From an uncultured Pseudomonadota bacterium (GTDB lineage Bacteria; Myxococcota_A; Polyangia; Fen-1088), in the NCBI GenBank assembly GCA_963847705.1, contig CAWKBC010000029.1, positions 97,278 through 161,277 of the forward strand: a stretch of 64,000 bases of DNA, in the 5' to 3' direction. Every line of letters starts with the position of its first letter. Position 1 is the first letter of the stretch. The notes below the pieces were generated by a model that did no database searches, was not told the origin of the DNA, and worked only from the letters and a program-made list of their open reading frames with translations. Below are positions 9,585 through 57,812 of this stretch, in pieces. The position numbers and the translations under genes are program-made.

Positions 9585-11150
9585 ATGCGCCGGATCTCGA
9601 TCTGCGTCGCCACGCTGCTGCTGGCGGCCTGCCACGCGCCGGCCGCCGGATCGTCGTTGGCGTCACCTCCCGAGGCGGCCGCGCCCGCTGCGCCTGGGGC
9701 CGCCTCCGAGGTGGCGCCTCGCGTGGTCGTCGTCGGCGGTGGAATCGCCGGTCTGGTCAGCGCCTACGCGCTCGGCAAGCGCGGCATCGCCACCCGGCTT
9801 CTCGAGGCCAGCGAGAGCTGGGGCGGGCGGGTGGCCACCGCGACCTACGCCGACGGCAACTACGCGGAGTACGGGATGCAGGAGATCTGGGCGGACAACC
9901 CGTTGCTCGGCATCGCCCGCGAGCTGGCGGTGCCGCTCGACGAGAAGGTGGAGGATCCGTATTCGAGCGTGGTGCTGGACGGCAAGCTCTTCCCCTTCGT
10001 CCAACCGACGGCGGAGAAGTTCTTGGCCTCGTTCCTGGATCCCGGCGAACGGAAGGCGCTGGCGGCCTTCATGCAAAGAGCGGCGGCGCTGGGCGAGGCG
10101 GCGCACGCGGCCGGGCCCTTGAGCCCGGAGCTGGAGCAGCTCCAGAGCGTGTCGTTCGCGGACTGGGTGGGAACGTTTGGTCTGCCGCCGCGGGTCTCGG
10201 AGTGGATCCGGCTCACCATCGAGTGCGAGCTGGCGACCGACTGGAAGAGCTTCTCCGGGTTGATCGGCCTCATCGAATTTCGGTTCTTTCTCGGTCCCGG
10301 CGAGCCCAATTACCACGTGCGCGGCGGCAACGCGCGTCTCATCGCCGCGCTGGTCGGCGCCATCCAGGGCCCGAAGACGCTGCTGGCCACGGTGACCGCC
10401 ATCGAGCGCTGGAAGACCCCCGATGGGCGCACGCGCGCCCGGGTCTCGTACATGCGCGATGAACGGCTGGAGACCGTGGAGGCCGACCAGGTGATCCTGG
10501 CGGTTCCGTTCTATCGCCTGCACCAGATCCAGATCGATCCCCCGCTGTCGGACCAGAAGTGGCAGGCCATCCTCACGCTCGGCCGCGGCCAGTACACCGT
10601 GGTGCACCTGCTGGTGGACAAGCGCGCGCGACAGATCTGGATGGTGCACGGCCGGTCGCCCTTTCCGGTCCTGACCGACGGCCCCCTCGGCGTCGTGTAC
10701 GGCGTGATGCACGAGAGCCCGGCCTCCCAGCCGCTCGAGGTCTTCTCGCTGCTGATCCACGGCGCCGCGGCGGGCGCCTTTCACATGGTGCCGCGCGAGA
10801 TCAAGGTGCGGGAGATCCTGACCGCGCTGGACAAGCTGTGGCCCGGCCTGTCAGCGCACGTCCGTTCGAGCCAGGTGTTCACCTATCATCCGGCGGCGCT
10901 CCCGGTCTGGCCGCCCGGCCGCTCGCCGCTGGATGAGGGCGCGCGCAGTCTGCGGGAGCCTGAGCTCGGTCTCTACCTGGCGGGCGACTACACGCTGAGC
11001 GGTCACTCCAACGGCGCGGCCGAGAGCGGTCTGGCGGTGGCGGCGCAGATCAGCCGGGACCTCACGGCGACGACGGCAGCGGCAACGACGCCCGCAGAGC
11101 GGTTTCGATCACCGCCAACCCCTCCTCCAGGAGATCTTCGGGCGCCGTGA
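9585..11150 (+). CDS. FAD-dependent amine oxidase family lipoprotein
   Basis: Lipobox MRRISICVATLLLAAC. Dinucleotide fold VVVVGGGIAGLVSAYALGKRGIATRLLEASESWGGR. C-terminal LYLAGDYT motif typical of flavin amine oxidases. Confidence 0.75.
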   Translation: MRRISICVATLLLAACHAPAAGSSLASPPEAAAPAAPGAASEVAPRVVVVGGGIAGLVSAYALGKRGIATRLLEASESWGGRVATATYADGNYAEYGMQEIWADNPLLGIARELAVPLDEKVEDPYSSVVLDGKLFPFVQPTAEKFLASFLDPGERKALAAFMQRAAALGEAAHAAGPLSPELEQLQSVSFADWVGTFGLPPRVSEWIRLTIECELATDWKSFSGLIGLIEFRFFLGPGEPNYHVRGGNARLIAALVGAIQGPKTLLATVTAIERWKTPDGRTRARVSYMRDERLETVEADQVILAVPFYRLHQIQIDPPLSDQKWQAILTLGRGQYTVVHLLVDKRARQIWMVHGRSPFPVLTDGPLGVVYGVMHESPASQPLEVFSLLIHGAAAGAFHMVPREIKVREILTALDKLWPGLSAHVRSSQVFTYHPAALPVWPPGRSPLDEGARSLREPELGLYLAGDYTLSGHSNGAAESGLAVAAQISRDLTATTAAATTPAERFRSPPTPPPGDLRAP

Positions 11151-36809: not shown

Positions 36810-36988
36810 GGCGCTGTTCACGTACGACTGCGACCGCGACAGCCCCGGCGTCGTGATTCCCCGTCCAGAGCTCCAGCTGGTCGTTCGCTTCGGCCCGTCC
36901 TCGCGAAACGGTCTCGACGTCCACGCCTTCGGCGCCCGCCAGAGGGTGCACCGAAAGCTCATCCGCCGCGGCCAGCGGAGCGCCCTAC
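36810..36988 (+). pseudogene. remnant: 5' end of an AraC-family gene paralogous to 27352..28074
   Basis: Encodes SALFTYDCDRDSPGVVIPRPELQLVVRFGPSSRNGLDVHAFGARQRVHRKLIRRGQR, matching 27355-27532. Similarity stops abruptly at about 36988. Confidence 0.75.
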
Positions 36989-38010
36989 GGTCTTGGGGCT
37001 CCCCTGCGGCGACTGATCCGTGGCTTGGCTGGGTCGCCGGATTCGTGCGCGTGCCAGACGCGCTTGGCGTCCTTTTCCGCCTCTGCAAGCACGCGCTTCT
37101 CAGCAATCAGGTAGTTGCCCGCTTTCACGCCGCCGTTTGAAGACCAGCCGAGCCACTTCCCAAGTAGGTACTGGGGCCGATGTCGCAACTGGAACTGGGC
37201 AAGCCCTTCATAGCCGACTTGCGCCGGATCCCACCAGTGCCCCGTTACCAAGCGCCCGCCTTGGAGACGGGCGCACACCTCGTAGTGGCGGTTATCCTCT
37301 TTCCATTTGTAACGACCACGCAGCCGGTCGCCGAACACGGCGATTTTGACGGGCTGCTCGTGCCGAACCGAACCCTCGATCCACACGCAACGCATCTCCC
37401 CATCCCCACCTCCGATTGTCCTGCCCCACCGCCTGCGGAGCTTCCCTTCGGCACGTTGCATATGCCTCTGCAACCCACGGACGCCGTCTGCAGTCAGGTG
37501 GAACGCCCGACGGCTGCCGACTATCGTCATCTCCGCATCCAAGCCGACCCACGTAATACCTTCGAGATCGCTGATCGGCGCACCGCTCGACCGCATCTTC
37601 CAAGGCTCTCTGGGTGGTGAGATCGAATAAGGCTTCGGCACCGCGATACTCGCACCCATCGCGGGATCCCACCCAGCCGACCCCGCCTTCAGGACGAGCT
37701 GGAGGCAGTTGGCCATGCCCAGGGCCCCGCCGAACATACCCAGTTCGTACAGTACGTTGCCGCGGGGAAAATGACCCACTTCGTCTCTCGAGAACAAGAG
37801 ATCATCCGGAGAGAGCAAGAAAAGCCCGCCATCATAGCGCCGCAGCCCGCGCTCGATGGTCTCGACTGTCATATTTCCGGGTACGAAGAATCCATCGGTC
37901 CATATCTCGCAGTCCGCCCACTCACGGATCGCCCCCTTTACCTGCTCGGCAGCCTTCTTTGCTTCAATTGAACTAGCGACGAATACTCTCGGTTTCATGA
38001 GTGCCGTCAC
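36985..38010 (-). CDS. TIR-like (bacterial nucleotide-binding TIR-like fold) domain protein with an unknown C-terminal domain
   Basis: 341 aa. N-terminal KPRVFVASSIEAKKAAEQV...LFLLSPDDLLFSRDEV...RGNVLYELGMFGGALG matches the remembered signature of PF10137-type TIR-like domains (hydrophobic strand, SPDD, NVxxExGxFxGxLG). The C-terminal ~220 aa are unrecognised. Confidence 0.55.
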   Translation of the reverse strand: MTALMKPRVFVASSIEAKKAAEQVKGAIREWADCEIWTDGFFVPGNMTVETIERGLRRYDGGLFLLSPDDLLFSRDEVGHFPRGNVLYELGMFGGALGMANCLQLVLKAGSAGWDPAMGASIAVPKPYSISPPREPWKMRSSGAPISDLEGITWVGLDAEMTIVGSRRAFHLTADGVRGLQRHMQRAEGKLRRRWGRTIGGGDGEMRCVWIEGSVRHEQPVKIAVFGDRLRGRYKWKEDNRHYEVCARLQGGRLVTGHWWDPAQVGYEGLAQFQLRHRPQYLLGKWLGWSSNGGVKAGNYLIAEKRVLAEAEKDAKRVWHAHESGDPAKPRISRRRGAPRP

Positions 38011-38111
38011 ATTAGAACATCGAGCGCGCCGGCCGGGCTCTGTCTTTCGACAGCCTCTGACACTGTCGGCACACTATGGCTAGTACACGAGATCCCAAGT
38101 TCCTATCCAGG

Positions 38112-38426
38112 CTAAGGGGTTGATGCGAGAAGCCAGGTGAAGTCCTGGTGGAGCCAGGCGACCATGTTGCCGCGTGGACCGACGAAGGGGATGGGCTCCC
38201 AGCGGTTGGAGTGGGTGCGTACGTCGACACGCCAGTTGTCGCGTTCCAGAAGGCGGAAGCGGAGCCGGACCTCGGGGTCTGTGGTCGGGCCGGACTCTAC
38301 GAAGACGGCGTTTCGCACGACGCGCGCGCGAAGGTGCTTGTAGCCCAGGATATGCAGCAGCCGCTCGATTCCGGCGGCATCGTCGGCAAGGGTGGCGGGG
38401 GGCTTCTTACTCGTGGCTTTGGGCAT
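38112..38426 (-). CDS. small hypothetical protein
   Basis: ATG 38426: MPKATSKKPPATLADDAAGIERLLHILGYKHLRARVVRNAVFVESG...RWEPIPFVG...; 104 aa. The start lies 20 nt from the IS630 transposase stop. Confidence 0.4.
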   Translation of the reverse strand: MPKATSKKPPATLADDAAGIERLLHILGYKHLRARVVRNAVFVESGPTTDPEVRLRFRLLERDNWRVDVRTHSNRWEPIPFVGPRGNMVAWLHQDFTWLLASTP

Positions 38427-38429
38427 CAG

Positions 38430-39600
38430 GGCCGGCCGAGCCACATCAGGCGGCGAGGCGCGGACGTTGATGCTGATCGAACCGGCCCCGGAAAGTCCAG
38501 CGGAACGGATGGGCTTCCTGGCGGTTCCAATGTTCGATGAACGACAGGAGGCGCTTTTCCAGTTCACCAGGCGTCCGGAAGTCTCCGAAGCGAATCACGC
38601 GGCGCTGAAGAATCCCGAACCAGATTTCGATCTGGTTCACCCACGATGCGTGGATGGGTGTGTACACAAAATGAAAGCGATTCCCGTGGCGGCGGTTGAA
38701 ACGGGCCCACTCTGCGCCGCAGTGAATGTTGAGGTTGTCCCAGACGATATACACGTCGCCGGTCGGGTAGCGACGGGCAAGATCCTCCATGAAGGCCAAG
38801 AGGTCCGCTGCAGTTCGACGTGCGCGAACATGCGCGAAGACCTCGCCGGTGCGGATGTCGAACGCCCCGATCAGCGTCCGGGTGCCGCGCCGTACGTACT
38901 CACATTCGAATCGATTGGGTTGGCCTGGCCGCCCGGGACGCATCGGAAACCGGCGGCCCAGCGCCTGAATGCAGGTCTTCTCGTCGACGCACAGGACCGT
39001 CGCCCCTTTTGGGGGTCGAAGTGTACAGGCGGCAGATTCGGCGCACCTTCGGGCGGAACTTTGGGTCTGGGCTGTGTAGCCACAAGCTGACCCGATGCGG
39101 TCGCATTCCCTCGGTTCGAAGAATCCTGCCAATCTCGCTTACGCTGAGCGTGTGCCCGGTTTCGCGCCGGAGGGCCTCTCGGAGCGTTTTGTAAGTCCAC
39201 GTATCCCGAAACCGCATGCGCTTCTCGTCCGGCCGAATGCAAGCCAGCTTCACGAGTTCGAGGCGCACCTCCATCGGCACCCTCGACGGGCGCCCGCTAC
39301 GAGGCATGTCGCACAGATCATCGAGGTCCCCGCTCCCCATGAACCGATCCCGCCACTGGCGAACCGTCACCCGCGTCGTGGAGAGCCGCCGAGCCACTTC
39401 CGCCACCGAAATCCCCGACGCCAGCATCAGGATGATCCGCGCCCGTAGGCCAGTCCGATACTCCACCCGCTGGCCGCGCACCAACGCCATCAGCGCCTTT
39501 CGCTGCTGTCGCGTCACCTTCAGCCGACCTTGCTGCGGTCTTGCCATACCGCAGCGATCGATCTCGCCTCGATTCTATTCCCGACGGTCAGGAACTTTCG
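38430..39600 (-). mobile_element. IS630-family insertion sequence (ends not resolved)
   Basis: Contains the transposase frames below. Terminal inverted repeats could not be identified by eye, so the boundaries are approximate. Confidence 0.55.
38446..39547 (-). CDS. IS630-family DDE transposase, in two frames joined at an A4 tract
   Basis: The N-terminal HTH part (ORF 38900..39547: ...SGISVAEVARRLSTTRVTVRQW...RICRLYTSTPK) continues in the +1 frame (ORF 38446..39132: GATVLCVDEKTCIQALGR...VWDNLNIHCG...YTPIHASWVNQIEIWF). The junction is at CCCCCAAAAGGGG (39004-39016, minus strand). Confidence 0.75.
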
Positions 39601-39610
39601 GTCTCACGAA

Positions 39611-42600
39611 CTAGTTACTCGTAAGCAGGCGGCGCACGTCTGGAACCTGGAGCGCTTTATACTCAACGCCAAGAAGAGTGCACATTCGCTGTTTGAGCGC
39701 CCTGTCTCCTCCAAACAGGTAAAAGTGTTCGACTACAATTCGCCCGACAGCGTCACGCGCAAGAGCGTTGTCCTTGAGATCCCGAGCAAGCTCCTTAACC
39801 AGACCTTCGGGGAATGTCCCATTATTCTCCAGCGCGATCGCCACGTCGATAAGCCTCACTGCCACCGTCGGCGAATCAGACAGAAGACGTTCGTAAGTTG
39901 TAGTCAGCGCCGGCGATCCCACCGACGATGCAACTCTTTTGACCAGGCCGAATGTCACCATCCTCGCGAGCATTACCAGCGTGGCCTGCGCCCGCTCTCT
40001 TACCTCATCATCTTTGAACGTTGGAAATCGTTCACGTACCATTGCGATAACGTCCGCGACTATCTCCTCTTCATTGTTTTTAAGCAGACGAAACACCATC
40101 CCCAGCGCCCGAAGCCCGATGCCATAACATTCCTTGGCGATTTCGAATTTCGTATCCGCCTCGAGCGATCCAGGAAAGTTCTTGAGGCTCTGCCCGAGGA
40201 CCTGGAGAGTCTTCAGCGCTCCGTTCATCCGCATTATCGGGTCGACAGCCGCGCGCGCCGGATCGATTGCATCTCCGTCGCGGTCGTCCTCCGCCTCCGT
40301 CCCTTGCACATGCTCGTCTCTCGCAAGCGCAAGTTCGCGCCTCGCGTCCGACACCGCCTTCTCTTCATAGACCAAGTCACCAACGAGTGCCTCGAGGTCA
40401 TTTATGAACCCAACGTCGTCCGCCAAGCGAGCCGAATCAATGTCGCTAAATGAGTCACGTGCCGCGTTCAACATTTCCCGAACGATAGACGGGTCTTTCG
40501 ACAGATGGGCCAAAAACAACATGATATTCGCATAGCGCGTCCGATAGAGCGCACGTGCCATCGTCTTTATTTCGACCTGGATATCCGATCGCGATATGTG
40601 GTCGCGCATATAGTTGGCGGTGAAATAGTAAAGGAGATAGCGATGCTTAAACTGATATCTCTCACCCGACTTGCTTATCACTCTTTGATCCATCAGTTCA
40701 TCACGAACCCGCTCGAACGGACGCTCAATTTCATACCGTTCGACATACTCCGCATTGATTCGACGCCACTCGTCTTCAGCTAACTCGGTCACTCCCATGC
40801 CATGCAGACGATGCGCGAAAAACGACAAATACCCGACTGCGATATCGTAGTCGCCCTTCGACCTGTTCTTCGACAGCGCCAGCCGAACGAACAGCTCGAA
40901 GAAATAGCCGTGGGTACTAGCATTTGTATCAATTGGCGTGGCCGCCTCCGCGCCTTGCAAGATCGCCAATATGTAGATCGGGAATGGCGGAACAAAGTTC
41001 TTGCCCAGGATGACATCTAGCTGCCGATCGATTTCAACGAGACGTCGAGCAACTTCAGGACCGTCAGCATCGTAGTTATCTGACAGCGAGAACCACTTCT
41101 CGATCATCTCATTTCTTTGAACGCGCCCGAACGGCTGAATGTGATAGTGAGAAAACGTCGCGTCGCCGGACGGGCGCATGACGTCGGTTAGATTCTGGGC
41201 GACGTCATCGGCCAGCAAAACGACGGTGTCGGCCAGCATTGCCAAATTCGACACAAAAGCGTGTCGCGCCTTTCCGTTGAGCGGGATCTTATGGAAATCG
41301 TCCACGATGATGGCCTTTTTTCGCCGATCGTGCTGCGAATATCGATCCAGGGATCCCGGTTCGTACTGTTCCGAAAACTCTCCTTCGACGTAGCGCGAAA
41401 GCCCGTCGCTCTGTGGCGGGCGGCGCTGGCCTCGTAGCCATACGGGCACGATTCCTTGGTCGAGAAGCCTCGAGAAGAGCATTTTCCCCAACGAGGTGCG
41501 TCCCGACTGACTTTCACCGGAGAGGAGCAATTTTGGTTTTTGCTTTAGCAAACCAATAATCCCGTCTGCCTTTACTAACTCGCCTTGCTGTTGAGTCAGC
41601 AGTCGAATCTCACGAACGTCCGGAAACACAAACACATCTGAGAGTTTCAGCACACCCCGGTCGCGATGAGTGAGGTCCACCCCCGGGGATTCGATGAACT
41701 CTATCGTCTTCGGCTTGAGCTGAAACTCGCTTCCCTTTCGGTGCCGTGTTCGAAAGCCTTCCCAGTCCTTGGCGGAAGCCGCGAGGTACCGCTCGCCGTT
41801 CCACTTGACGCTGAGGACCTTCTGCTTTTGGGCTGTGGTGTCTACGAGGATGAGGTTAAAGGCGCTTCGTGTTGGATCGTCGCGATCCTGCAGCACGTGG
41901 CCCTCGACGTAGGAGACGTCCCCCGAAACTGTCTCGACCTTCCGATGCGAGTGCTCGTGTTCGTGCCCGGTCAAAATCACGTCGGAGATACGCTCCAATT
42001 GCGAACGAACGACGCGGGCATTCGACGGTTCGAGCCAGTTCATCGGATGGTGGAGTAGCGTTACGACGACATCTTCCCCTGCCTTTTCGGCGACAGCGTG
42101 AGGAGGGAAAAACAGAGAGCCGGGTCGTTCCTGGCGCCGGGACAGCGAGGCCGTATTGCAGCACAGAAAGCGCACCGATTCCCCACCGGCCTCAACGGCA
42201 ATCTCGTATGCGATACGTGGATCAAGGGGCCCGCTCGGCCGCCTTGCGGGCGACTGAACTGAATCGAGAAACTCAAAGAAATTGTCCTGGGCTTTCAGAA
42301 GGACCTGCCACATCGACGGATCATTTATGCTAGACGACTCCCGCAACATTGCGTCAGCGACATAGCCACGAGCTCCATCAACTTCTGGGAGTACACAGTC
42401 GTGATTGCCGGGCACCACAATCACCGACACAGGGACCGACGTCCCTGTACCCGGCTTCGCACTCAATGTTGAGGCTAGTTCCTTGGACAGCCAATCGACA
42501 AGCTCCTCGGCGACGGTAAACTCCTCGTCTCGGCCAGCCTGTACGACGTCGCCTGTAATCGCCAGGACAGCCGCATCCAGACCATATTCGGTGTTTTGAA

Positions 42601-42691
42601 TTGCTTGAACGATTGCTTTGCGACGCGAGAGGACGGGATCCGTCTCTGTCGCGAGATGAATGTCGCTAAGGTGAACTATTACAAGTTTCAA
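39611..42691 (-). CDS. metallophosphoesterase / P-loop NTPase / helical-repeat (STAND-like) multidomain protein
   Basis: TTG 42691 preceded by GGGAGG. Metallophosphoesterase motifs HLSDIHL, ITGDVV, VPGNHD, LLHHP, LTGHEHEH. Walker A GESQSGRTS (41492-41518). Walker B KKAIIVDDF. About 550 aa of C-terminal alpha-helical region. GC is roughly 52-55% in hand-counted lines. Confidence 0.7.
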   Translation of the reverse strand: MKLVIVHLSDIHLATETDPVLSRRKAIVQAIQNTEYGLDAAVLAITGDVVQAGRDEEFTVAEELVDWLSKELASTLSAKPGTGTSVPVSVIVVPGNHDCVLPEVDGARGYVADAMLRESSSINDPSMWQVLLKAQDNFFEFLDSVQSPARRPSGPLDPRIAYEIAVEAGGESVRFLCCNTASLSRRQERPGSLFFPPHAVAEKAGEDVVVTLLHHPMNWLEPSNARVVRSQLERISDVILTGHEHEHSHRKVETVSGDVSYVEGHVLQDRDDPTRSAFNLILVDTTAQKQKVLSVKWNGERYLAASAKDWEGFRTRHRKGSEFQLKPKTIEFIESPGVDLTHRDRGVLKLSDVFVFPDVREIRLLTQQQGELVKADGIIGLLKQKPKLLLSGESQSGRTSLGKMLFSRLLDQGIVPVWLRGQRRPPQSDGLSRYVEGEFSEQYEPGSLDRYSQHDRRKKAIIVDDFHKIPLNGKARHAFVSNLAMLADTVVLLADDVAQNLTDVMRPSGDATFSHYHIQPFGRVQRNEMIEKWFSLSDNYDADGPEVARRLVEIDRQLDVILGKNFVPPFPIYILAILQGAEAATPIDTNASTHGYFFELFVRLALSKNRSKGDYDIAVGYLSFFAHRLHGMGVTELAEDEWRRINAEYVERYEIERPFERVRDELMDQRVISKSGERYQFKHRYLLYYFTANYMRDHISRSDIQVEIKTMARALYRTRYANIMLFLAHLSKDPSIVREMLNAARDSFSDIDSARLADDVGFINDLEALVGDLVYEEKAVSDARRELALARDEHVQGTEAEDDRDGDAIDPARAAVDPIMRMNGALKTLQVLGQSLKNFPGSLEADTKFEIAKECYGIGLRALGMVFRLLKNNEEEIVADVIAMVRERFPTFKDDEVRERAQATLVMLARMVTFGLVKRVASSVGSPALTTTYERLLSDSPTVAVRLIDVAIALENNGTFPEGLVKELARDLKDNALARDAVGRIVVEHFYLFGGDRALKQRMCTLLGVEYKALQVPDVRRLLTSN

Positions 42692-43406
42692 CGTGACCTC
42701 CCAGGGGCTAGGGACGGAGGAGATGATTCCTAAGGTGGATAGACTCGTCCGAGCGCCGTTCAAATGGCGGGCTGAGCTGCGGGTCCCGCTACATTTCATC
42801 AATAGCTTGCTCGTTGGTCAAGAGATAGGCGGCGGTTTGCGCGTTTTCGGGCCCGCGCATTTCCTGCCTCTTGGCCAAGGGCCGGACACCTCCCAGACTC
42901 AATCCCCAGACGTGATACGATGCGCTTGGCTATCAGTTGCGGCTCGCAGCCAAAGGGGCGAGCTTGAAACGAATCATGATCTCGGGCGTGATGGCTCTCG
43001 CAGTTCGGGTCAGGGTAGGGACGTACTCAAAAGCCCTCGCCTCCTCCAGTCGAGCATCGGGGCTGCTGTTCACACCACGGCGGCGAGTGCGGGTGCGATA
43101 GCGGTCATGACAAGGGCTGCGACGGCACCGTTAGTCCTACCTGCGGCTGTGACTAATATAGGCGTCCCAAGCCTCGCTGAGGCTCGACGTGCTGGCCCGA
43201 TGGTGGCCCCCGTACTCGTTCGTAGCGGGCGTCGCTGCTGCGCGCGTGCCACTGAAGGTAGCGGCCTCAGATCGCGATCCTTACGGCCATTCGTTTACAG
43301 CCGCGTCGCGCCAAGACAGGCTGTGTTCGTCGAGCGGATCAGGCCGCCAGATCTCGGGACACCGAAGCAGGATCGCTGAAGAAGCGGGCGAGCCTAGCCC
43401 CGTCTC

Positions 43407-43428
43407 TGTGACCCCATCGGGAATTGAA
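43407..43428. repeat. attL: 22-bp direct repeat tgtgaccccatcgggaattgaa (copy of the tRNA-Glu 3' end)
   Basis: Identical to 57739..57760. The bases on both sides differ. Confidence 0.8.
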
Positions 43429-43791
43429 AGCACCCCAAGCGTCACGAAACGGAGCGAGGATCTGTCATCTCCGACGGAAAACCGAGGAACGAGGTCGTCG
43501 AAAAGGCGCCTCGTCGCGCTGAGCGGTAGCAAAGTAGCAAAAATCGCTGCAATTGCGCGAAATGCTGTAGAAAATTACGATCTGACTCGGGCAATCGAGG
43601 TACTAGAGGAGCTGCGGCGGCTCGGCGAAGGGCGATCGCGCTGAAGGCACTGAAGGCCGCGATCCGGTTGCTAGAATCCTTCAAGGACGCGCCGGAGAGC
43701 CCCCTCGGTGCCACGCGCAGGTGACGAAGAATCGGGACACGGCGCGCAATCTATAGCGCGAACCCCGGCTCTGCCAGCGCGGCCGTGCGAT

Positions 43792-45475: not shown

Positions 45476-47968
45476 TCACTTGGCTGGGTGGTAGTTCCAA
45501 CTGAACAGCAGGGGCCCAAACCCCCAATAAGACGCAGCCGGATCGTAGTTCATGGGAATCCCCGCCGCTGTAGCAAACCAGTGCGCGAAGTAGTTGCTGT
45601 TGGTTCCCGACCAATCGTACGTCAGCTTCTGGGCATTGAACGGATCGATAAGTGCTTGAAAATCCTGGAGCACAACGGGCGCGGATCCGTGAAAGAAGAC
45701 CGGTGTGCCTGGGGGGTTCTCGTTAACGAAATGTTTGGCCGCATCTCCCACTGTATCATACTTGTTGGCAGTAGCATAGAGAGTGCCCCCCTGCCCGTTC
45801 TTGTCGCACCCGGAGCATCCGGCCTCGATGAGAACGGCTGTGCCATCGTCCGTCTCAATTATCCAGCCGGCGTGTGATGCGTCGAAGAACGAGACGATGA
45901 GCTGCTTCCACCACACGAACGAGGACGAGTCGATCTGGCGCGACATCAAGAGCGCAGTGCCGGTCCTCGGGATAAGGCCGTTGCAAGCTGGGTCACCGGT
46001 CTTACAAGCTATGAACGTGCCGTCGTGCTTCTTCGCCGCGTCGGCCCCCTCGCCGTTGCCCTGCGACAGCTGAATCACCTTCTGTAGGCCCAGCGTTGCG
46101 GCCCCCTCCCCAGCGCTAAGGAGCGCGGCCCCCAGAAGATCGTAACCTGAGACGTCTCTTCCGGACAGCCCCTCGGACCAGGCGGTCACGTACGCGGCCG
46201 ACGCCGACCCGAAAATAAGGTTGGCCAGTGGGCTGCCGCCAGGCCCCCCGAACTCTACGCCGCCTACGAATCCCAGGCCGAGCCCGAGCGCAGTCGTAAA
46301 CAACGTTTGGGCAACTCCCGCCCCATCCGATATTGCGATAGCGGCATTGAGTGCCGCAAATTCCAGTCCAAGGGCCAAGCAGCCGACCTCGGTGGTTGCA
46401 CACGCCACTATGGACGCGGCTACCTCAATATCGGTGAGCGGATTGCCGAAGACAAACTCGAAGTAGTTGCCGAGCTTGCTCCAGAAGTAGCCCGTCGGGT
46501 CGTTGTACCGGAGGGGGTTATTCCCGACGTAACTGTAACGGTTGTAGTTCTGAAGGTCGTCTGTGAACTGGACATTCGGATCTGGTGAGAGAAAGCGAGC
46601 GAGCACGGGGTCATACACCCGCCCATTCATGTTCACGAGGCCGACGTCCGGGATCTGCTCTTGTCCCGTGAATTCGCGGTCTCCGGGCGGCAGGGGGAAC
46701 GACGCCGGATCCGCGAGCGTCCCGTCGGGATTCCGCCGGGCCCCCCATGCGTCATAGCTCAAGACGGTGGCGCTGGTTCCAGCGGACTGGACGCTGGCAA
46801 CCCGGCCATTGTCGTCGCTCATGGAGGACACGGAGCCGAGGTGATCGAAGCTGTAGTACTTGCTGTCGGTCGGCTGCCCGTTATCGTCCAGAACGCGGAG
46901 CGCGAAAGCATTGTCGTTGTGGAGGTTGCCCGCGTAGATGAAATGTACATTCTTGGGTGTGGCACCGGGAGTCGTCGTTCGCTCGTAGAGACTCTTTCCC
47001 GTGGCTCCCAGACCGACGTACACCGTCCGCGTCGTGACCCCTCCACTCGTCGCGGTCTGAAGGACGCGGTTCCCGTCGGCGCCGTACGCGAAACCGACGC
47101 TGGCGCCGCCGCTGCCGACGGTTTCGATGGTCGTCACCTTGTTCGACGGGTTGTAGCCCACCGAACGGCTCCCGTTCGAAGTCAGGTTGCCATTGTCGTC
47201 GTAGGCGTAGGCCGTGCCATTTCCCACGGTGCAGACGGCGTGTGGTCCGGCCGTGCGGCCTCCTGCCTGACAGCCCGAGCCGTAGGTGTAGTTGTTGTTG
47301 TCCTTCTGGGTTAGGTTGCCCACGTTGTCGTAGACATAGGATTTACTGACGGGCCCCGAAGACGTGAAGGTCACGGCGTTCGTGAGTCGGTTCGTGAGGT
47401 CGTAAGCGAAACTCTCTTGCGAGATGTTTCCGCTGGCGGCGTCGTTCCGGTTTCGATTCAACAGGTTGCCGATCTCGTCGTACCCGTACCCCTGACTCTG
47501 GATCACGTTGTCGTGGTCTGCGTGGGCCGTCCCTGTCGATGCCATCAGCCATCCGGTGATCGAGTTGCGCGTTGAAGCGATCTCGACGCCGTTCTTCATC
47601 TGCTCGTCGATGACCTGGCCGAGAACATTCTCGGCCTTCGCCTGCCACAGCACCGAATAGTCCGTCGACTCGTCGGTCAGGTACTGAAGGTAGCCCGAGC
47701 TCGTATAGTGATAGCCGACCGCAAGCTGGCTGGTGTTCACCACAGGGTAACGAATCAAGCTCTGCCGCCCCAAGCCGTCGTACTGGTAGGAGGTCGCGAA
47801 GGAGGTGCCGTCGGCGCACTCGTCAACCTCTTGCAAATCACCCAGCGGCGTATAGACGTATGACTTGACGGCTACCTGGCCGCCGTTACCCGGCGCGCCT
47901 TGGGAGAAAACAAAGACCCCGATTTTCGATGAAATCCTCGGCAGGCAAGACTCTCCTTCTTCGAGCAT
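45476..47968 (-). CDS. RHS repeat-associated core protein, N-terminally truncated, with a C-terminal polymorphic toxin domain
   Basis: YD/RHS repeats (YQYDGLGRQ, YGYDEIGNL, YAYDDNGNL, ...). Core-end motif RYSYVGNNPLRYNDPTGYF at about 46481-46540. About 335 aa of C-terminal tip follow. The ORF is only 830 aa, with no N-terminal secretion or PAAR-type region. Confidence 0.8.
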   Translation of the reverse strand: MLEEGESCLPRISSKIGVFVFSQGAPGNGGQVAVKSYVYTPLGDLQEVDECADGTSFATSYQYDGLGRQSLIRYPVVNTSQLAVGYHYTSSGYLQYLTDESTDYSVLWQAKAENVLGQVIDEQMKNGVEIASTRNSITGWLMASTGTAHADHDNVIQSQGYGYDEIGNLLNRNRNDAASGNISQESFAYDLTNRLTNAVTFTSSGPVSKSYVYDNVGNLTQKDNNNYTYGSGCQAGGRTAGPHAVCTVGNGTAYAYDDNGNLTSNGSRSVGYNPSNKVTTIETVGSGGASVGFAYGADGNRVLQTATSGGVTTRTVYVGLGATGKSLYERTTTPGATPKNVHFIYAGNLHNDNAFALRVLDDNGQPTDSKYYSFDHLGSVSSMSDDNGRVASVQSAGTSATVLSYDAWGARRNPDGTLADPASFPLPPGDREFTGQEQIPDVGLVNMNGRVYDPVLARFLSPDPNVQFTDDLQNYNRYSYVGNNPLRYNDPTGYFWSKLGNYFEFVFGNPLTDIEVAASIVACATTEVGCLALGLEFAALNAAIAISDGAGVAQTLFTTALGLGLGFVGGVEFGGPGGSPLANLIFGSASAAYVTAWSEGLSGRDVSGYDLLGAALLSAGEGAATLGLQKVIQLSQGNGEGADAAKKHDGTFIACKTGDPACNGLIPRTGTALLMSRQIDSSSFVWWKQLIVSFFDASHAGWIIETDDGTAVLIEAGCSGCDKNGQGGTLYATANKYDTVGDAAKHFVNENPPGTPVFFHGSAPVVLQDFQALIDPFNAQKLTYDWSGTNSNYFAHWFATAAGIPMNYDPAASYWGFGPLLFSWNYHPAK

Positions 47969-48240: not shown

Positions 48241-50250
48241 CTAGCGTCCGGGGCCAAACCGCGCGAGAGGGTCGCCAAGCGGTAGGCGTTCTGGCTCGTC
48301 GCGATGGCGCCCTTCGAGCCTGCGCAATCGGTCGTCCTGCCGTCTGAGGTGTTCAGCGAGGCGGTCTCCTGGCACACCAAACGCAACGGCCGCCGTCCGC
48401 TTCGCGTACGCATCCCAATCGCGCATCTCGTCTGGCCGAACAGCAGGCGCGGCCTCCTTGATCGCCCGCACGATCTCGCCCCGGTGGTGGCCAGTAAGGC
48501 GCATGCGGACAGCGATCTCGGCATCGACCCGCGACGGGTGGATGGGCTGACCTGGGTGCTCCCGGGTGACATCCGCGAGGTGACGCCGATAGACCGCCGC
48601 CGCCGTGCGAGTCTCCGCTATCCCGGCCGGTCGGCGATCGCGATCCGTCCGGTGCTCTCTTGCGGGTGTGCGAATCCGCTCCCGCTCCGCGGCAAGGGCA
48701 TGCTGGAGCTCCGGGTTCGCGATATTGAAGCCGTGCTCTGCAGCCAGTTCGACGCACATTCTCTGGAACAGCTCTTTTCCGCGGACGGTGAAGGCACCCC
48801 ACTTCTGGGCGCTCAGTTGAAGGGCGGCGAGGACGCTTTCCCTTCGGTTGCTGTCATAGATGTCGATCTTCTTACCCCTGTCCGTGAAGGCCGGGGAGGC
48901 GCGCTCGCCGACGCGATGATAGTGGACGTGCCAACCTTCAGCGAGCGCAGCGAACGCCCGGATGTCCTGGGGCGCCGGGCGCTCGAAGGTCAGCCCCTCT
49001 ATGCCGGCCGGCTGTCGTTCTCGATGTCGCCACTCCTGCGCGAGTTCGTGGTCCCTGTGACGCAGCCATTCCTCGTAGCTCGGGAACCGTCCCAGTTCCC
49101 TTTGCGGCTCGCCGCACTCCAGTTTTTGGCGATCACGCTGCTCCGCCCTTTCCTGCGCCTGACGGGCGGCGAGCATGCTCCGGGCCGCGTTGAGGAGCGC
49201 CCCACGACCTTTCCACGACCCGCGGAAGATCTCGGTCCGCTCCCGCCGATGCCGGGCGGCCATGCGTCTCCCGTCCTCCCGCTGCTGCTCCCGGTGAGCC
49301 CCACGCTCTCCGTAGTGACGGCCACGCGCCTCGATGTACTGCTTCCAGCCATAAGCGCTCGGTGTGATCGGCTCTGGAGTTCGGAGGGGTGTCATCACCC
49401 TGGCGGCATCCTTCGTCAGCTCGAACTCTCCGAGGCGCTTCTGCAGCGCCGACATCGAGCAGTCGCGGCCGGCGCTGCTGGCCTTCACCGGCTGATCGCC
49501 GACCCACAGAATCGCTCCCGAGCCCTTCCTCTCGAAGCGCATTCCCTTCTCGGCCAAGACCTCATGCATCTCCCTCCAGCTCCGAGCCGCGCGGATAGCG
49601 GGCGCTCCGTCCTCGATGGCCACCCGCTCGGCGCTCCGCGCGCCCACCCGCTCTTCGAAATTGCGGGCTCGGGCGGACGGTTTGCGTTCTTCCTCGCCGC
49701 GCGGTCGATCGCGCTCAACGCGCCCGTCCTCCTGCACCCGGAACAGACCGCGGTCCTCCCTCTGCCACCCCTGAGAGTTCTCGATGCGAGCGATCGCCCG
49801 GTGGGCGACCTCGTGGTCGAACCCGTTGTTCACGGTGGCTAGCTTCTCGGTCTCTGGGTGAACACGGTTGACGGCCATGTGGAGGTGCCAGTTCTCCGTG
49901 TCGCGGTGCAGCCCGTAGAGCGCCTGGTGCTCGGCCAAGCCCATCTCATCCAGGAACATCCTCGCCGCCTGATCAGCCTGGGCCGACGTCGGCTGCTCTC
50001 CCTCCTTCCAGCTCATGATCCAGTGCTGTACTGGCTGGGGGCTGCCCATGGCCAGGTCCGCCAAGTCGATCATCTCCTGCACCTGTTCCTCGTGATCGAG
50101 GTTCAGGAGGTTCAGGGAGCCCCGGTGCTCCACCTTCTCACCAGCGCCGCCGGCACCGGGGCCGGCGATGTAGTCGGCCAGGGCGCGCACGTGGGCAGCC
50201 TTGCTCTTGGGCGCCCCGACCTTCGATCGCGCGACCTTCTTGACGATCAG
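48241..50250 (-). CDS. traI: IncP TraI-type relaxase (MobP family)
   Basis: LIVKKVARSK...ALADYIAG (catalytic Tyr region), HWIMSW, HRDTENWHLHMAVNRVHP (HxH motif), colinear with RP4 TraI from memory. The longest canonical start (GTG 50190) would remove the conserved N-terminus, so the start is placed at CTG 50250 / ATC 50247. Confidence 0.75.
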   Translation of the reverse strand: MIVKKVARSKVGAPKSKAAHVRALADYIAGPGAGGAGEKVEHRGSLNLLNLDHEEQVQEMIDLADLAMGSPQPVQHWIMSWKEGEQPTSAQADQAARMFLDEMGLAEHQALYGLHRDTENWHLHMAVNRVHPETEKLATVNNGFDHEVAHRAIARIENSQGWQREDRGLFRVQEDGRVERDRPRGEEERKPSARARNFEERVGARSAERVAIEDGAPAIRAARSWREMHEVLAEKGMRFERKGSGAILWVGDQPVKASSAGRDCSMSALQKRLGEFELTKDAARVMTPLRTPEPITPSAYGWKQYIEARGRHYGERGAHREQQREDGRRMAARHRRERTEIFRGSWKGRGALLNAARSMLAARQAQERAEQRDRQKLECGEPQRELGRFPSYEEWLRHRDHELAQEWRHRERQPAGIEGLTFERPAPQDIRAFAALAEGWHVHYHRVGERASPAFTDRGKKIDIYDSNRRESVLAALQLSAQKWGAFTVRGKELFQRMCVELAAEHGFNIANPELQHALAAERERIRTPAREHRTDRDRRPAGIAETRTAAAVYRRHLADVTREHPGQPIHPSRVDAEIAVRMRLTGHHRGEIVRAIKEAAPAVRPDEMRDWDAYAKRTAAVAFGVPGDRLAEHLRRQDDRLRRLEGRHRDEPERLPLGDPLARFGPGR

Positions 50251-56134: not shown

Positions 56135-56485
56135 GTGAGCCTGTTCGACGAAAAGGTGCTCCGAGACATCGTGGCCGACGAGCTCCGCCGAGTCCTGCGC
56201 GAAGAAAGAGGCGAGTACAGGCGACCGGCCAATGACGGTGAATACCTGCCGGTTGCCGAAGCAGCAGGCCGAGCGGCCGTCGCGCCAGCGACGATCCGAA
56301 CATGGATGGCCCAAGGAAGACTTGGTCGTTACCACGCAGGACGGGAACTGCGGGTTCTCTGGTCAGAGCTGGCCAGCTTGATGCGCAAGCCGCCCAAGAA
56401 GTCGGATGGCGCCGAGGGCGACCGGATGACGCCCGAAGAGGAAGCGGCCGTCTACCTTCAGCGACGGCGCAAGCGAGCGACGTGA
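56135..56485 (+). CDS. xis: excisionase-family (MerR-like HTH) DNA-binding protein
   Basis: GTG 56135 preceded by GGAGG. EYLPVAEAAGRAAVAPATIRTWMAQGRLGRYHAGRELRV. Lies immediately upstream of the integrase. Confidence 0.6.
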   Translation: MSLFDEKVLRDIVADELRRVLREERGEYRRPANDGEYLPVAEAAGRAAVAPATIRTWMAQGRLGRYHAGRELRVLWSELASLMRKPPKKSDGAEGDRMTPEEEAAVYLQRRRKRAT

Positions 56486-56548
56486 GTCGCAAAGGTGATC
56501 TCCATCGACGACAACGCCGACGAAGATCGGCAGACTAGGAGGTGAGCC

Positions 56549-57778
56549 ATGGGAAGCCTTTACACCAAAGGGGACAAGCTCTGGATTCGCTACAAGGACG
56601 AGACCGGCAAGTGGGTCGGTGCGCCGACACAGTCGAGGCCGGGTGAGGAGAAGCGAGCCCTGCGGCACCTCGCCGCGGTGGAAGCGCACGTGAAGGCCAT
56701 GACGGAGGCGAAGACAAAGGCGGACGTGGAGCCTGGCGCGCCGCTGACAGTGGCGGCGTACGTGAATCGCTGGCTCTCCGATCGAAAACGTCTCGGCCTG
56801 CGTTCCATTCCTGACGATACGTCCCGGATGAATCTGCACGTGCTTCCACATATCGGCAGCATGGAGCTGCACGAGGTTCGTCCCCGCCACCTGCGCGAGC
56901 TCGTCTTGCGACTCCGAGAGAAAGGGAAACTCGCGCCTCGAACGATCCACCACGTCTATCATCTGACGGCGACGCTGTTCCGGACCGCGGTTGCAGAAGA
57001 GCTGATCGATGCCACTCCCTGTGTGCTTCAGCGTGGCGTTCTTCCGAAGAAGGTCGACAAGGATCCAACCTGGCGGGTCACCGCTATCTACACGCGAGAA
57101 GAGATCGAGAAGTTGATCTCCGATCGGCGCATCCCGGAGGACCGGCGCGTCCTGTATGCGCTCAAGGCGCTCGGCGGCCTTCGTCACGGAGAGGCGGCAG
57201 GTCTCCGCTGGCGGCAGTACGACCAGACGCTGGAGCCGCTCGGCGGCCTGTCTCTCGAGCAAACGAAGACGCAGGTGCCGCGACGTGTTCCCGTCCACCC
57301 TACCCTGGCCCGCGTCCTCAGCGAGTGGAAGTCAGCCGGCTTCGAGAGGACCTATGATCGAGCGCCGACCGCGATCGATCTCGTCGTTCCGACGCGCAAC
57401 TTCACCGAGCGCTCTGCGCAGGAGACGCCGAAGCAGCTGCACGGTGATCTCAGAACGCTCGGGCTGCGCGAGCGTCGTGGCCACGACCTTCGTCGCACGT
57501 TCGTCACGCTCGCTCAGGTCGATGGCGCACGCCGCGATCTCCTCGAAACGATGAGCCACGGGCCTCGGGGAGACATCGTATCCGTGTACACCACCTTCCC
57601 CTGGCCGGCGCTCTGCGCCGAGATCGCGAAGCTGAAGATCGAACTGCGATCCGACGGAGTTCACGACGGCAGTAGCAAAGCCTTTGCTACCGCGTTTGCT
57701 ACCGGTCACGTAAAAGGTCGGAACCGCTGGATAAAAAGTGTGACCCCATCGGGAATTGAACCCGAGATTTCGCCGTGA
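56549..57778 (+). CDS. int: tyrosine-type site-specific integrase
   Basis: 409 aa. RHGEAAGLRW, HDLRRTF, SHG, IVSVYT (R-H-R-Y catalytic set). The 3' end runs through attR into tRNA-Glu. Confidence 0.85.
   Translation: MGSLYTKGDKLWIRYKDETGKWVGAPTQSRPGEEKRALRHLAAVEAHVKAMTEAKTKADVEPGAPLTVAAYVNRWLSDRKRLGLRSIPDDTSRMNLHVLPHIGSMELHEVRPRHLRELVLRLREKGKLAPRTIHHVYHLTATLFRTAVAEELIDATPCVLQRGVLPKKVDKDPTWRVTAIYTREEIEKLISDRRIPEDRRVLYALKALGGLRHGEAAGLRWRQYDQTLEPLGGLSLEQTKTQVPRRVPVHPTLARVLSEWKSAGFERTYDRAPTAIDLVVPTRNFTERSAQETPKQLHGDLRTLGLRERRGHDLRRTFVTLAQVDGARRDLLETMSHGPRGDIVSVYTTFPWPALCAEIAKLKIELRSDGVHDGSSKAFATAFATGHVKGRNRWIKSVTPSGIEPEISP
57739..57760. repeat. attR: 22-bp direct repeat within the tRNA-Glu 3' end
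   Basis: Identical to 43407..43428. Covers tRNA positions 53-72 plus 2 nt downstream. Confidence 0.8.
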
Positions 57779-57812
57779 GAGGGCGACGTCCTAACCGCTA
57801 GACCATGGGGCC
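57741..57812 (-). tRNA. tRNA-Glu (anticodon CTC)
   Basis: Folded by hand: acceptor GGCCCCA/TGGGGTC, D stem GTCT/GGAC, anticodon stem TCGCC/GGCGA with loop CTCTCAC, T stem TCGGG/CCCGA with loop TTCAATT. 72 nt, no encoded CCA. Confidence 0.9.

Follow-up and report, generated by a model that had tools for sequence, protein, structure and literature searches.

The question raised by this locus is whether an integrase gene whose reading frame runs through its own attachment site specifies two different proteins, one in the circular and another in the integrated state of a mobile element. The window, i.e. the whole stretch of 64,000 nucleotides that was analysed, contains a perfect direct repeat of 22 nt, TGTGACCCCATCGGGAATTGAA, at positions 43407-43428 and 57739-57760, which constitutes the att core. 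No further copy with up to three mismatches was present in the window, nor did one appear in 100 shuffles. The right copy lies within the integrase gene int and is at the same time the 3' end of a tRNA-Glu(CTC) gene (57740-57812, minus strand), which is the integration target and is adjoined by a tRNA-Gln gene. The left copy is a displaced 3' fragment of tRNA-Glu and marks the int-distal junction. The element bounded by the two copies comprises 14.3 kb. It encodes a MobA/VirD2-type relaxase (48241-50190, minus strand; Pfam PF03432, E 5e-25) and is therefore classed as mobilizable. Besides the relaxase it contains an RHS fragment, an alpha/beta hydrolase and a sigma factor, and the integrase is located at its right end. 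Judged from the sequences compared below, we put the probability that this integrase carries a conserved C-terminal extension limited to the circular form at roughly 0.85 to 0.9. The module as a whole very probably represents an int-attP arrangement of the Mx8 type on an integrative mobilizable element of an uncultured Myxococcota bacterium. The DNA to the left of the left att copy (36985-43406) has a lower GC content of 0.51-0.58 and includes a giant metallophosphoesterase/STAND NTPase gene at 39611-42802, in keeping with a remnant of an older island at this tRNA.

In its integrated form, int (56549-57778, plus strand) encodes a protein of 409 aa that belongs to the Mx8 Int family. The gene passes through the right repeat in the frame gtg-acc-cca-tcg-gga-att-gaa and then takes its last five codons (PEISP) and its stop, TGA at 57776-57778, from the tRNA-Glu gene. 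This frame also passes through the left repeat (ORF 43189-43644) and stays open behind it for 71 more codons at 43429-43641, in frame with the core and reading STPSVTKRSEDL...EELRRLGEGRSR on the plus strand, before it ends with TGA at 43642-43644. The length of the circular-form integrase computed from the sequence is thus 404 + 71 = 475 aa. The initial annotation had already described the int frame across the repeat, the tail frame and the stops, and translation and repeat search confirmed every coordinate that it gave. It had also proposed that the excised circle would encode an integrase of about 475 instead of 409 aa, and this is supported by the frame at both repeats and by the conservation of the tail.

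In comparisons with Pfam, the integrase exceeded the cut-offs for Phage_int_M and Phage_int_SAM_3 and scored 25.8 bits with Phage_integrase, just below the cut-off of 27.1 bits. It possesses the R-K-H-R-H-Y catalytic set and the fold of a tyrosine recombinase. The catalytic residues R212, K240, H312, R315, H337 and Y347 are all located upstream of residues 398-404, which are encoded by the core, so that integration exchanges a non-catalytic tail only. A second, partial int of the Mx8 family is present outside the window in the same genome (G000:C12:14136-14546) with 59% identity to residues 277-404, and no match to the tail was found beside it.

We then asked how the C-termini of related integrases compare with the peptide encoded by 43429-43641. 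Among the best 120 int homologues, most have 404-409 aa and end with ..TPSGIEPEIAP or tRNA-encoded equivalents such as GFEPAFMP and GLEPEITP. These are integrated copies. In named genomes, which are MAGs labelled Myxococcales, Myxococcota or Kofleriaceae, the short-form gene abuts a tRNA-Glu gene (CTC or TTC) in the same orientation, and the int genes of the relatives end within it with PEIAP, PEITP and similar sequences. A minority of the 120 homologues runs past GIE or GFE into tails that share the motif A..A.NA..N.D..RA..L. Nine long-form homologues with this tail motif were identified, in agreement with what a conserved extension would lead one to expect. The tail of P0111 (..SPTENPKAAPTSRRLVRGDSSKVAKLALLASNAVKNLDLSRAQELLGELLRI) is clearly the same peptide as that of the window (..SPTENRGTRSSKRRLVALSGSKVAKIAAIARNAVENYDLTRAIEVLEELRRL), and P0124 and P0125 have the window's tail peptide at 81-85% identity. 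A second tail subtype (CNEC..ARRLA.VA.NA..NGD..R....L) is found in P0029, P0094 and P0087, and in P0092, P0099 and P0104 the helical motif is recognisable in more distant versions.

A profile built from seven tails was searched against 101 related genomes and matched in 31 of them. Apart from the window's own tail, 12 matches in nine genomes lead from the core to the helical motif in frame and without a stop (E 3e-25 to 2e-8), and three more are truncated tail relics. An exhaustive phmmer search with the 78-residue core-plus-tail sequence against 1.84 billion cluster representatives yielded 51 protein clusters with the tail at E <= 0.001. Across these clusters N52 and R61 are invariant, and S41, A44, A50, A53, N56, D58 and A62 are nearly so. 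In annotations, most of the clusters figure as short ORFs that stand alone (41-200 aa) and have variable and unrelated N-termini, which is the output of gene callers at the int-distal end of integrated elements. In the library of representatives at 50% identity, long-form integrases are hidden behind short-form representatives, and its length distribution is unfit for counting long forms. With the reconstructed 475-aa protein as query, a word-indexed search limited to the tail matched one protein, P0124. No Pfam family was assigned to any of 19 tails, and no relative was found among plasmid records.

The layout of the window's element recurs in another complete element (L059), which belongs to a Myxococcales MAG from a fen. 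It comprises 10.1 kb between copies of a 19-nt core repeat, its int is 66% identical, and a tail of 83 residues follows in frame after the distal core. A run of 11 N is present behind its int-proximal core (10634-10644) and no tRNA was detected there; the junction with the target is unreadable in this assembly. Two further arrangements were encountered among the tail matches. On L008 (G049:C153, 1512-4727) core and tail follow in frame behind a 586-aa frame resembling a large serine recombinase with zinc ribbon and coiled coil, which could be a tandem mosaic or a chance read-through. Four tail-like matches lie within 9 kb on G008:C1 (203804-212594, covered in part by L015), in a genome without an Mx8-type int at E <= 1e-20, and this cluster has the appearance of relic element ends arrayed at a single locus.

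The long form was also found outside integrated elements. P0099 (470 aa) is encoded on contig L062 by an int gene that follows an excisionase gene; next come, on the opposite strand, genes for a holin and a minor tail protein. The gene for P0092 (480 aa) is located on contig L061 between an excisionase gene and primase genes. No tRNA is present on either contig. Both represent phage-like or replicon-like genomes that encode the long integrase and are in the attP configuration. Their excisionase genes, of the HTH_17 type, occupy the position in which the window has a 78-aa ORF directly 5' of int (56302-56538, plus strand), a putative excisionase gene by position that was without a match in Pfam and PHROG searches. 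In a close relative of the window's element, represented by an environmental contig of 581 bp (L064), the 3' end of int is joined through the core to the tail. In L064, as in P0087, P0111, P0124 and L007, int is truncated upstream at the junction, and such junctions may be the remains of tandem insertions at the tRNA instead of circles. In L064, unrelated low-GC DNA is located upstream of int residue ~353. Truncated int genes were also seen at the junctions in L002 and L003, the latter cut by an IS of the rve family.

To gain insight into the structure of the long form, P0029 was modelled with AlphaFold on the basis of an alignment of 49 sequences (mean pLDDT 83). In the model, a three-strand N-terminal domain is followed by the core-binding and catalytic domains, by residues 394-434, which are disordered and include those encoded by the core, and by two helices at 435-453 and 457-469 with pLDDT >90. 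For the tail of the window, modelled from an alignment of 39 sequences, residues 1-37 are predicted to be disordered and helices are predicted at 42-55 and 59-73 with pLDDT 93-98. This predicted two-helix hairpin (43531-43626, plus strand) is the most conserved part of the tail, with nearly invariant residues N, A, N, D, R and A, and it exceeds pLDDT 90 in both tail subtypes. In Foldseek searches, the best match of the long-form model was full-length lambda integrase (1z1b_A, E 5e-9), followed by the integrases of Tn1549 and Brujita. The tail model had no match in the PDB with E <1.

Among the alternatives, the one that fares best holds that the tail was once part of the integrase and is now a decaying relic, the 409-aa enzyme doing all of the work and the switch being without consequence. 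Decay does occur in this family, as tails are kept in three genomes without an Mx8-type int (G034, G019 and G008) and the tails at four loci (L014, L016, L017 and L022) are truncated or interrupted by a stop. The dN/dS values for the whole tail in the four closest sequences, 0.35-0.66 with few substitutions, are just moderately below one. The element in the window, however, has an intact int and an intact relaxase gene, and its tail is itself intact, has all of the nearly invariant residues and shares 81-86% identity with tails from other genomes and assemblies. We therefore regard a mere relic as improbable and favour a tail that is maintained as part of the circular-form integrase.

Somewhat less probable still is that 43429-43641 is non-coding DNA of an attP arm, free of stops by chance and conserved for its DNA-binding sites only. 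The open frame in itself was rejected as evidence against this reading. The stretch 43429-43644 has a GC content of 57% compared with ~65% nearby, a run of 71 stop-free codons has a probability of ~0.14 given the local base composition and is thus compatible with chance, and, whether taken over the window or the island, 28-43% of all positions are followed by at least 71 open codons. A homologue on a metagenomic contig of 608 kb (P0005; 84% identical, 474 aa) even continues past GIE-S into a tail of 70 residues that is unrelated to the conserved one, which means that tails of this length do arise accidentally in GC-rich DNA. The decision consequently rests on the comparative evidence.

DNA-level constraint does exist within the stretch. 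The window has six copies of the octamer GTAGCAAA where 0.25 are expected (24-fold), and five of the six flank the att core. Three of them, one direct and two inverted, are located at the 3' end of int (57672-57702) in the codons ..SKAFATAFAT.., a layout that recurs in L002, L059 and L064. Two more are arranged in tandem within the tail (43526-43541, plus strand) in the codons S-K-V-A-K and are conserved in relatives. With distances from the core of -67 to -37 upstream and +98 to +113 downstream, this clustering on both sides indicates that the attP arms are probably contained within the long ORF, the upstream group being candidate P arm-type sites and the downstream pair candidate P' arm-type integrase sites. 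We infer that the integrase binds the octamers through its N-terminal domain as arm-type sites. The sixth copy (45570-45577), a solitary one within the RHS gene ~2 kb from the left att copy, is probably a chance occurrence. In the variable linker, the short motifs TCTCCGACGGA(A/G)AA (S-P-T-E-N; 43474-43488 in the window) and ACGAAAC (T-K) show conservation of the DNA itself among diverged elements (L005-L011) and may be further protein-binding sites of attP, e.g. for an excisionase or a host bending factor.

Conserved binding sites do not account for the pattern of variation in the hairpin, however. In a codon test with 15 DNA sequences that were anchored on the helical motif, the GTAGCAAA codons being excluded, the mean column entropies at codon positions 1, 2 and 3 were 0.90, 0.62 and 1.49 bits, and for 18 of 23 codons the most variable position was the third. 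In the helical part, pairwise dN/dS was mostly 0.09-0.3, with dS often >1, in a set of sequences found via protein similarity, which biases dN downward. Amino acids are thus retained at saturated synonymous sites, a pattern that constraint at the DNA level cannot produce. Both other plus-strand frames are interrupted by stops in all four closest sequences. In L009 the downstream octamers are one base further apart and the frame from the core to the hairpin is nevertheless kept, which implies that the DNA sites and the peptide are constrained separately. Tails of the second subtype keep the helical motif without octamers in the ORF, and the hairpin is predicted with confidence by AlphaFold. Chance read-through is thereby largely refuted, and we consider it very improbable. 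The option left by the initial annotation that the open frame may be chance is rejected, given that the tail peptide is conserved in relatives and that the coding signature of 43429-43641, in codon-position pattern and dN/dS alike, is positive. As far as sequence comparison goes, the 71-codon tail is conserved coding sequence; its hairpin is under clear constraint at the protein level, and its linker is barely constrained as protein, conservation there being partly at the DNA level (octamers).

Least probable of all is that the tail is a separate small gene at the end of the element, starting at the core GTG or read from the opposite strand (43442-43714): most assemblies do call it as a stand-alone ORF, a GTG is present at 43408 within the core and a minus-strand ORF of 90 aa overlaps the stretch, yet the window offers no ATG, GTG or TTG in frame from the core to the hairpin, the called ORFs begin at variable, unrelated upstream sites, and int and tail are fused on the non-integrated contigs. 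The core GTG is replaced by GCG or CCG in L007, L009, L010, L011 and L016 and was therefore rejected as an independent start, and the minus-strand ORF was excluded since its second codon positions would be the most variable sites.

The reading that we prefer, a conserved extension of the circular-form integrase, implies a simple cycle. In the circular element, after excision or transfer, int would encode the 475-aa protein, a lambda-type tyrosine integrase followed by a flexible linker of ~37 residues and the two-helix hairpin. Recombination with the 3' end of tRNA-Glu would cut the gene at the core and leave the 409-aa enzyme with five terminal codons derived from the tRNA gene; all catalytic residues would be kept, and linker and hairpin would be lost. 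Excision would restore the long gene. By analogy with phage Mx8, from which this part of the proposal is taken, the long form would be the efficient integrase of the free element, and the short form would be less active or altered in site preference, which would keep the integrated element stable. We consider such a division into an efficient long and an attenuated short form somewhat better than an even bet. The tail switch may have a role in integrase stability or directionality. More speculative, and rather unlikely in this specific form, is that linker and hairpin constitute an undescribed module, common to the whole family, that records the integration state and is needed for the integrative synapsis, e.g. 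by contacting the partner protomer or the P' arm complex specified by its own coding DNA, so that its loss would leave a weak or excision-biased recombinase. If this were true, phages and mobilizable elements across the Myxococcota would have directionality control encoded in the recombination site.

The type of switch has already been described for Mx8. What the present comparison adds is modest, namely a widespread family of hairpin tails with the 51 protein clusters mentioned above and putative arm repeats embedded in its coding sequence. It indicates that an integrase that is rewritten by its own integration is not confined to one phage and is conserved in many phages and mobilizable elements of uncultured Myxococcota. 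The tail domain is currently annotated as orphan 'hypothetical proteins' at the ends of islands. Its recognition would allow a better delimitation of islands at tRNA genes and explains int genes that end inside a tRNA. A compact natural switch with a long, presumably active and a short, presumably attenuated form would also be a candidate for genetic tools in myxobacteria. Vectors with Mx8 int-attP are already standard in these organisms.

Several known systems are suited for comparison. The lambda integrase is the best fold match of the long-form model, with which it shares the three-strand N-terminal, core-binding and catalytic domains, and the octamers are located at arm-like distances from the core. 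In lambda, however, attP is located outside int and the protein is unchanged by integration. In mycobacteriophages BPs and Brujita, immunity depends on integration, by which a gene extending across the attachment site acquires a new 3' end, and the remodelled gene there encodes the repressor and not the integrase. Integration of the archaeal virus SSV1 splits int well within the gene, so that no complete integrase gene is left. For archaeal integrases of the SSV type in general, an attachment site within the integrase gene and an alteration of the gene upon integration have been described (PMC4383910). Here, in contrast, all catalytic residues including Tyr347 precede the core (residues 398-404), only the tail is exchanged and the catalytic domain is untouched, and assignment to the split integrases of the SSV type was therefore rejected. 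Streptococcal ICEs in rumA also have the attachment site inside the integrase gene, whose 3' end is rewritten to give two forms of the protein (PMC4701971), the enzymes there being serine recombinases.

The closest parallel, and the published precedent for the same integration-dependent exchange of the C-terminus, is phage Mx8, which the initial annotation had not mentioned. The window's Int has 42.7% identity with Mx8 Int over residues 1-366 (tblastn, E 3e-70), the best match among 50,697 phage records. For Mx8, whose Int is named IntP in the phage and IntX or IntR in its prophage form (Tojo et al. 1996 and Magrini et al. 1999, as summarised in PMC6070905 and PMC4701971), attP lies within int (PMC6070905, PMC4701971, PMC4383910), and integration replaces 112 C-terminal residues by 13 and yields a modified integrase that is less active or changed in site preference (PMC4701971, PMC6070905). 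In both systems the attP core is located within the int ORF, the tRNA T-loop is read from its reverse complement in one and the same frame (G-L/I/F-E; ..STGLEPV.. in Mx8), integration takes place at the 3' end of a tRNA gene, and a long C-terminal tail gives way to a few residues encoded by the host. Both also have a short repeat on either side of the core inside the int ORF. In Mx8 int (L001, AF396866; 2662-2683 and 2875-2883), the core is preceded by a tandem pair of TGTGACAGCGG and followed by a single GTGACAGCG, which suggests that these repeats are candidate arm sites inside the ORF, mirroring the layout of GTAGCAAA. Mx8 has uoi (excisionase) directly upstream of int, the position taken here by the 78-aa ORF. 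The systems differ in that Mx8 is a phage and the present element is mobilizable and bears a relaxase gene, in that the target is tRNA-Asp there and tRNA-Glu here, and in that 71 and not 112 residues are exchanged, for five and not 13. Similarity between the tail of the window and the 112-aa tail of Mx8 was not detectable (hhalign probability 0.2%), the former belonging to a conserved family of its own with a predicted two-helix hairpin, and the functional data for Mx8 therefore carry over by analogy only. Judged in this way, membership in the Mx8 type is based on the body of the integrase and on the architecture of int and attP, and not on the tail.
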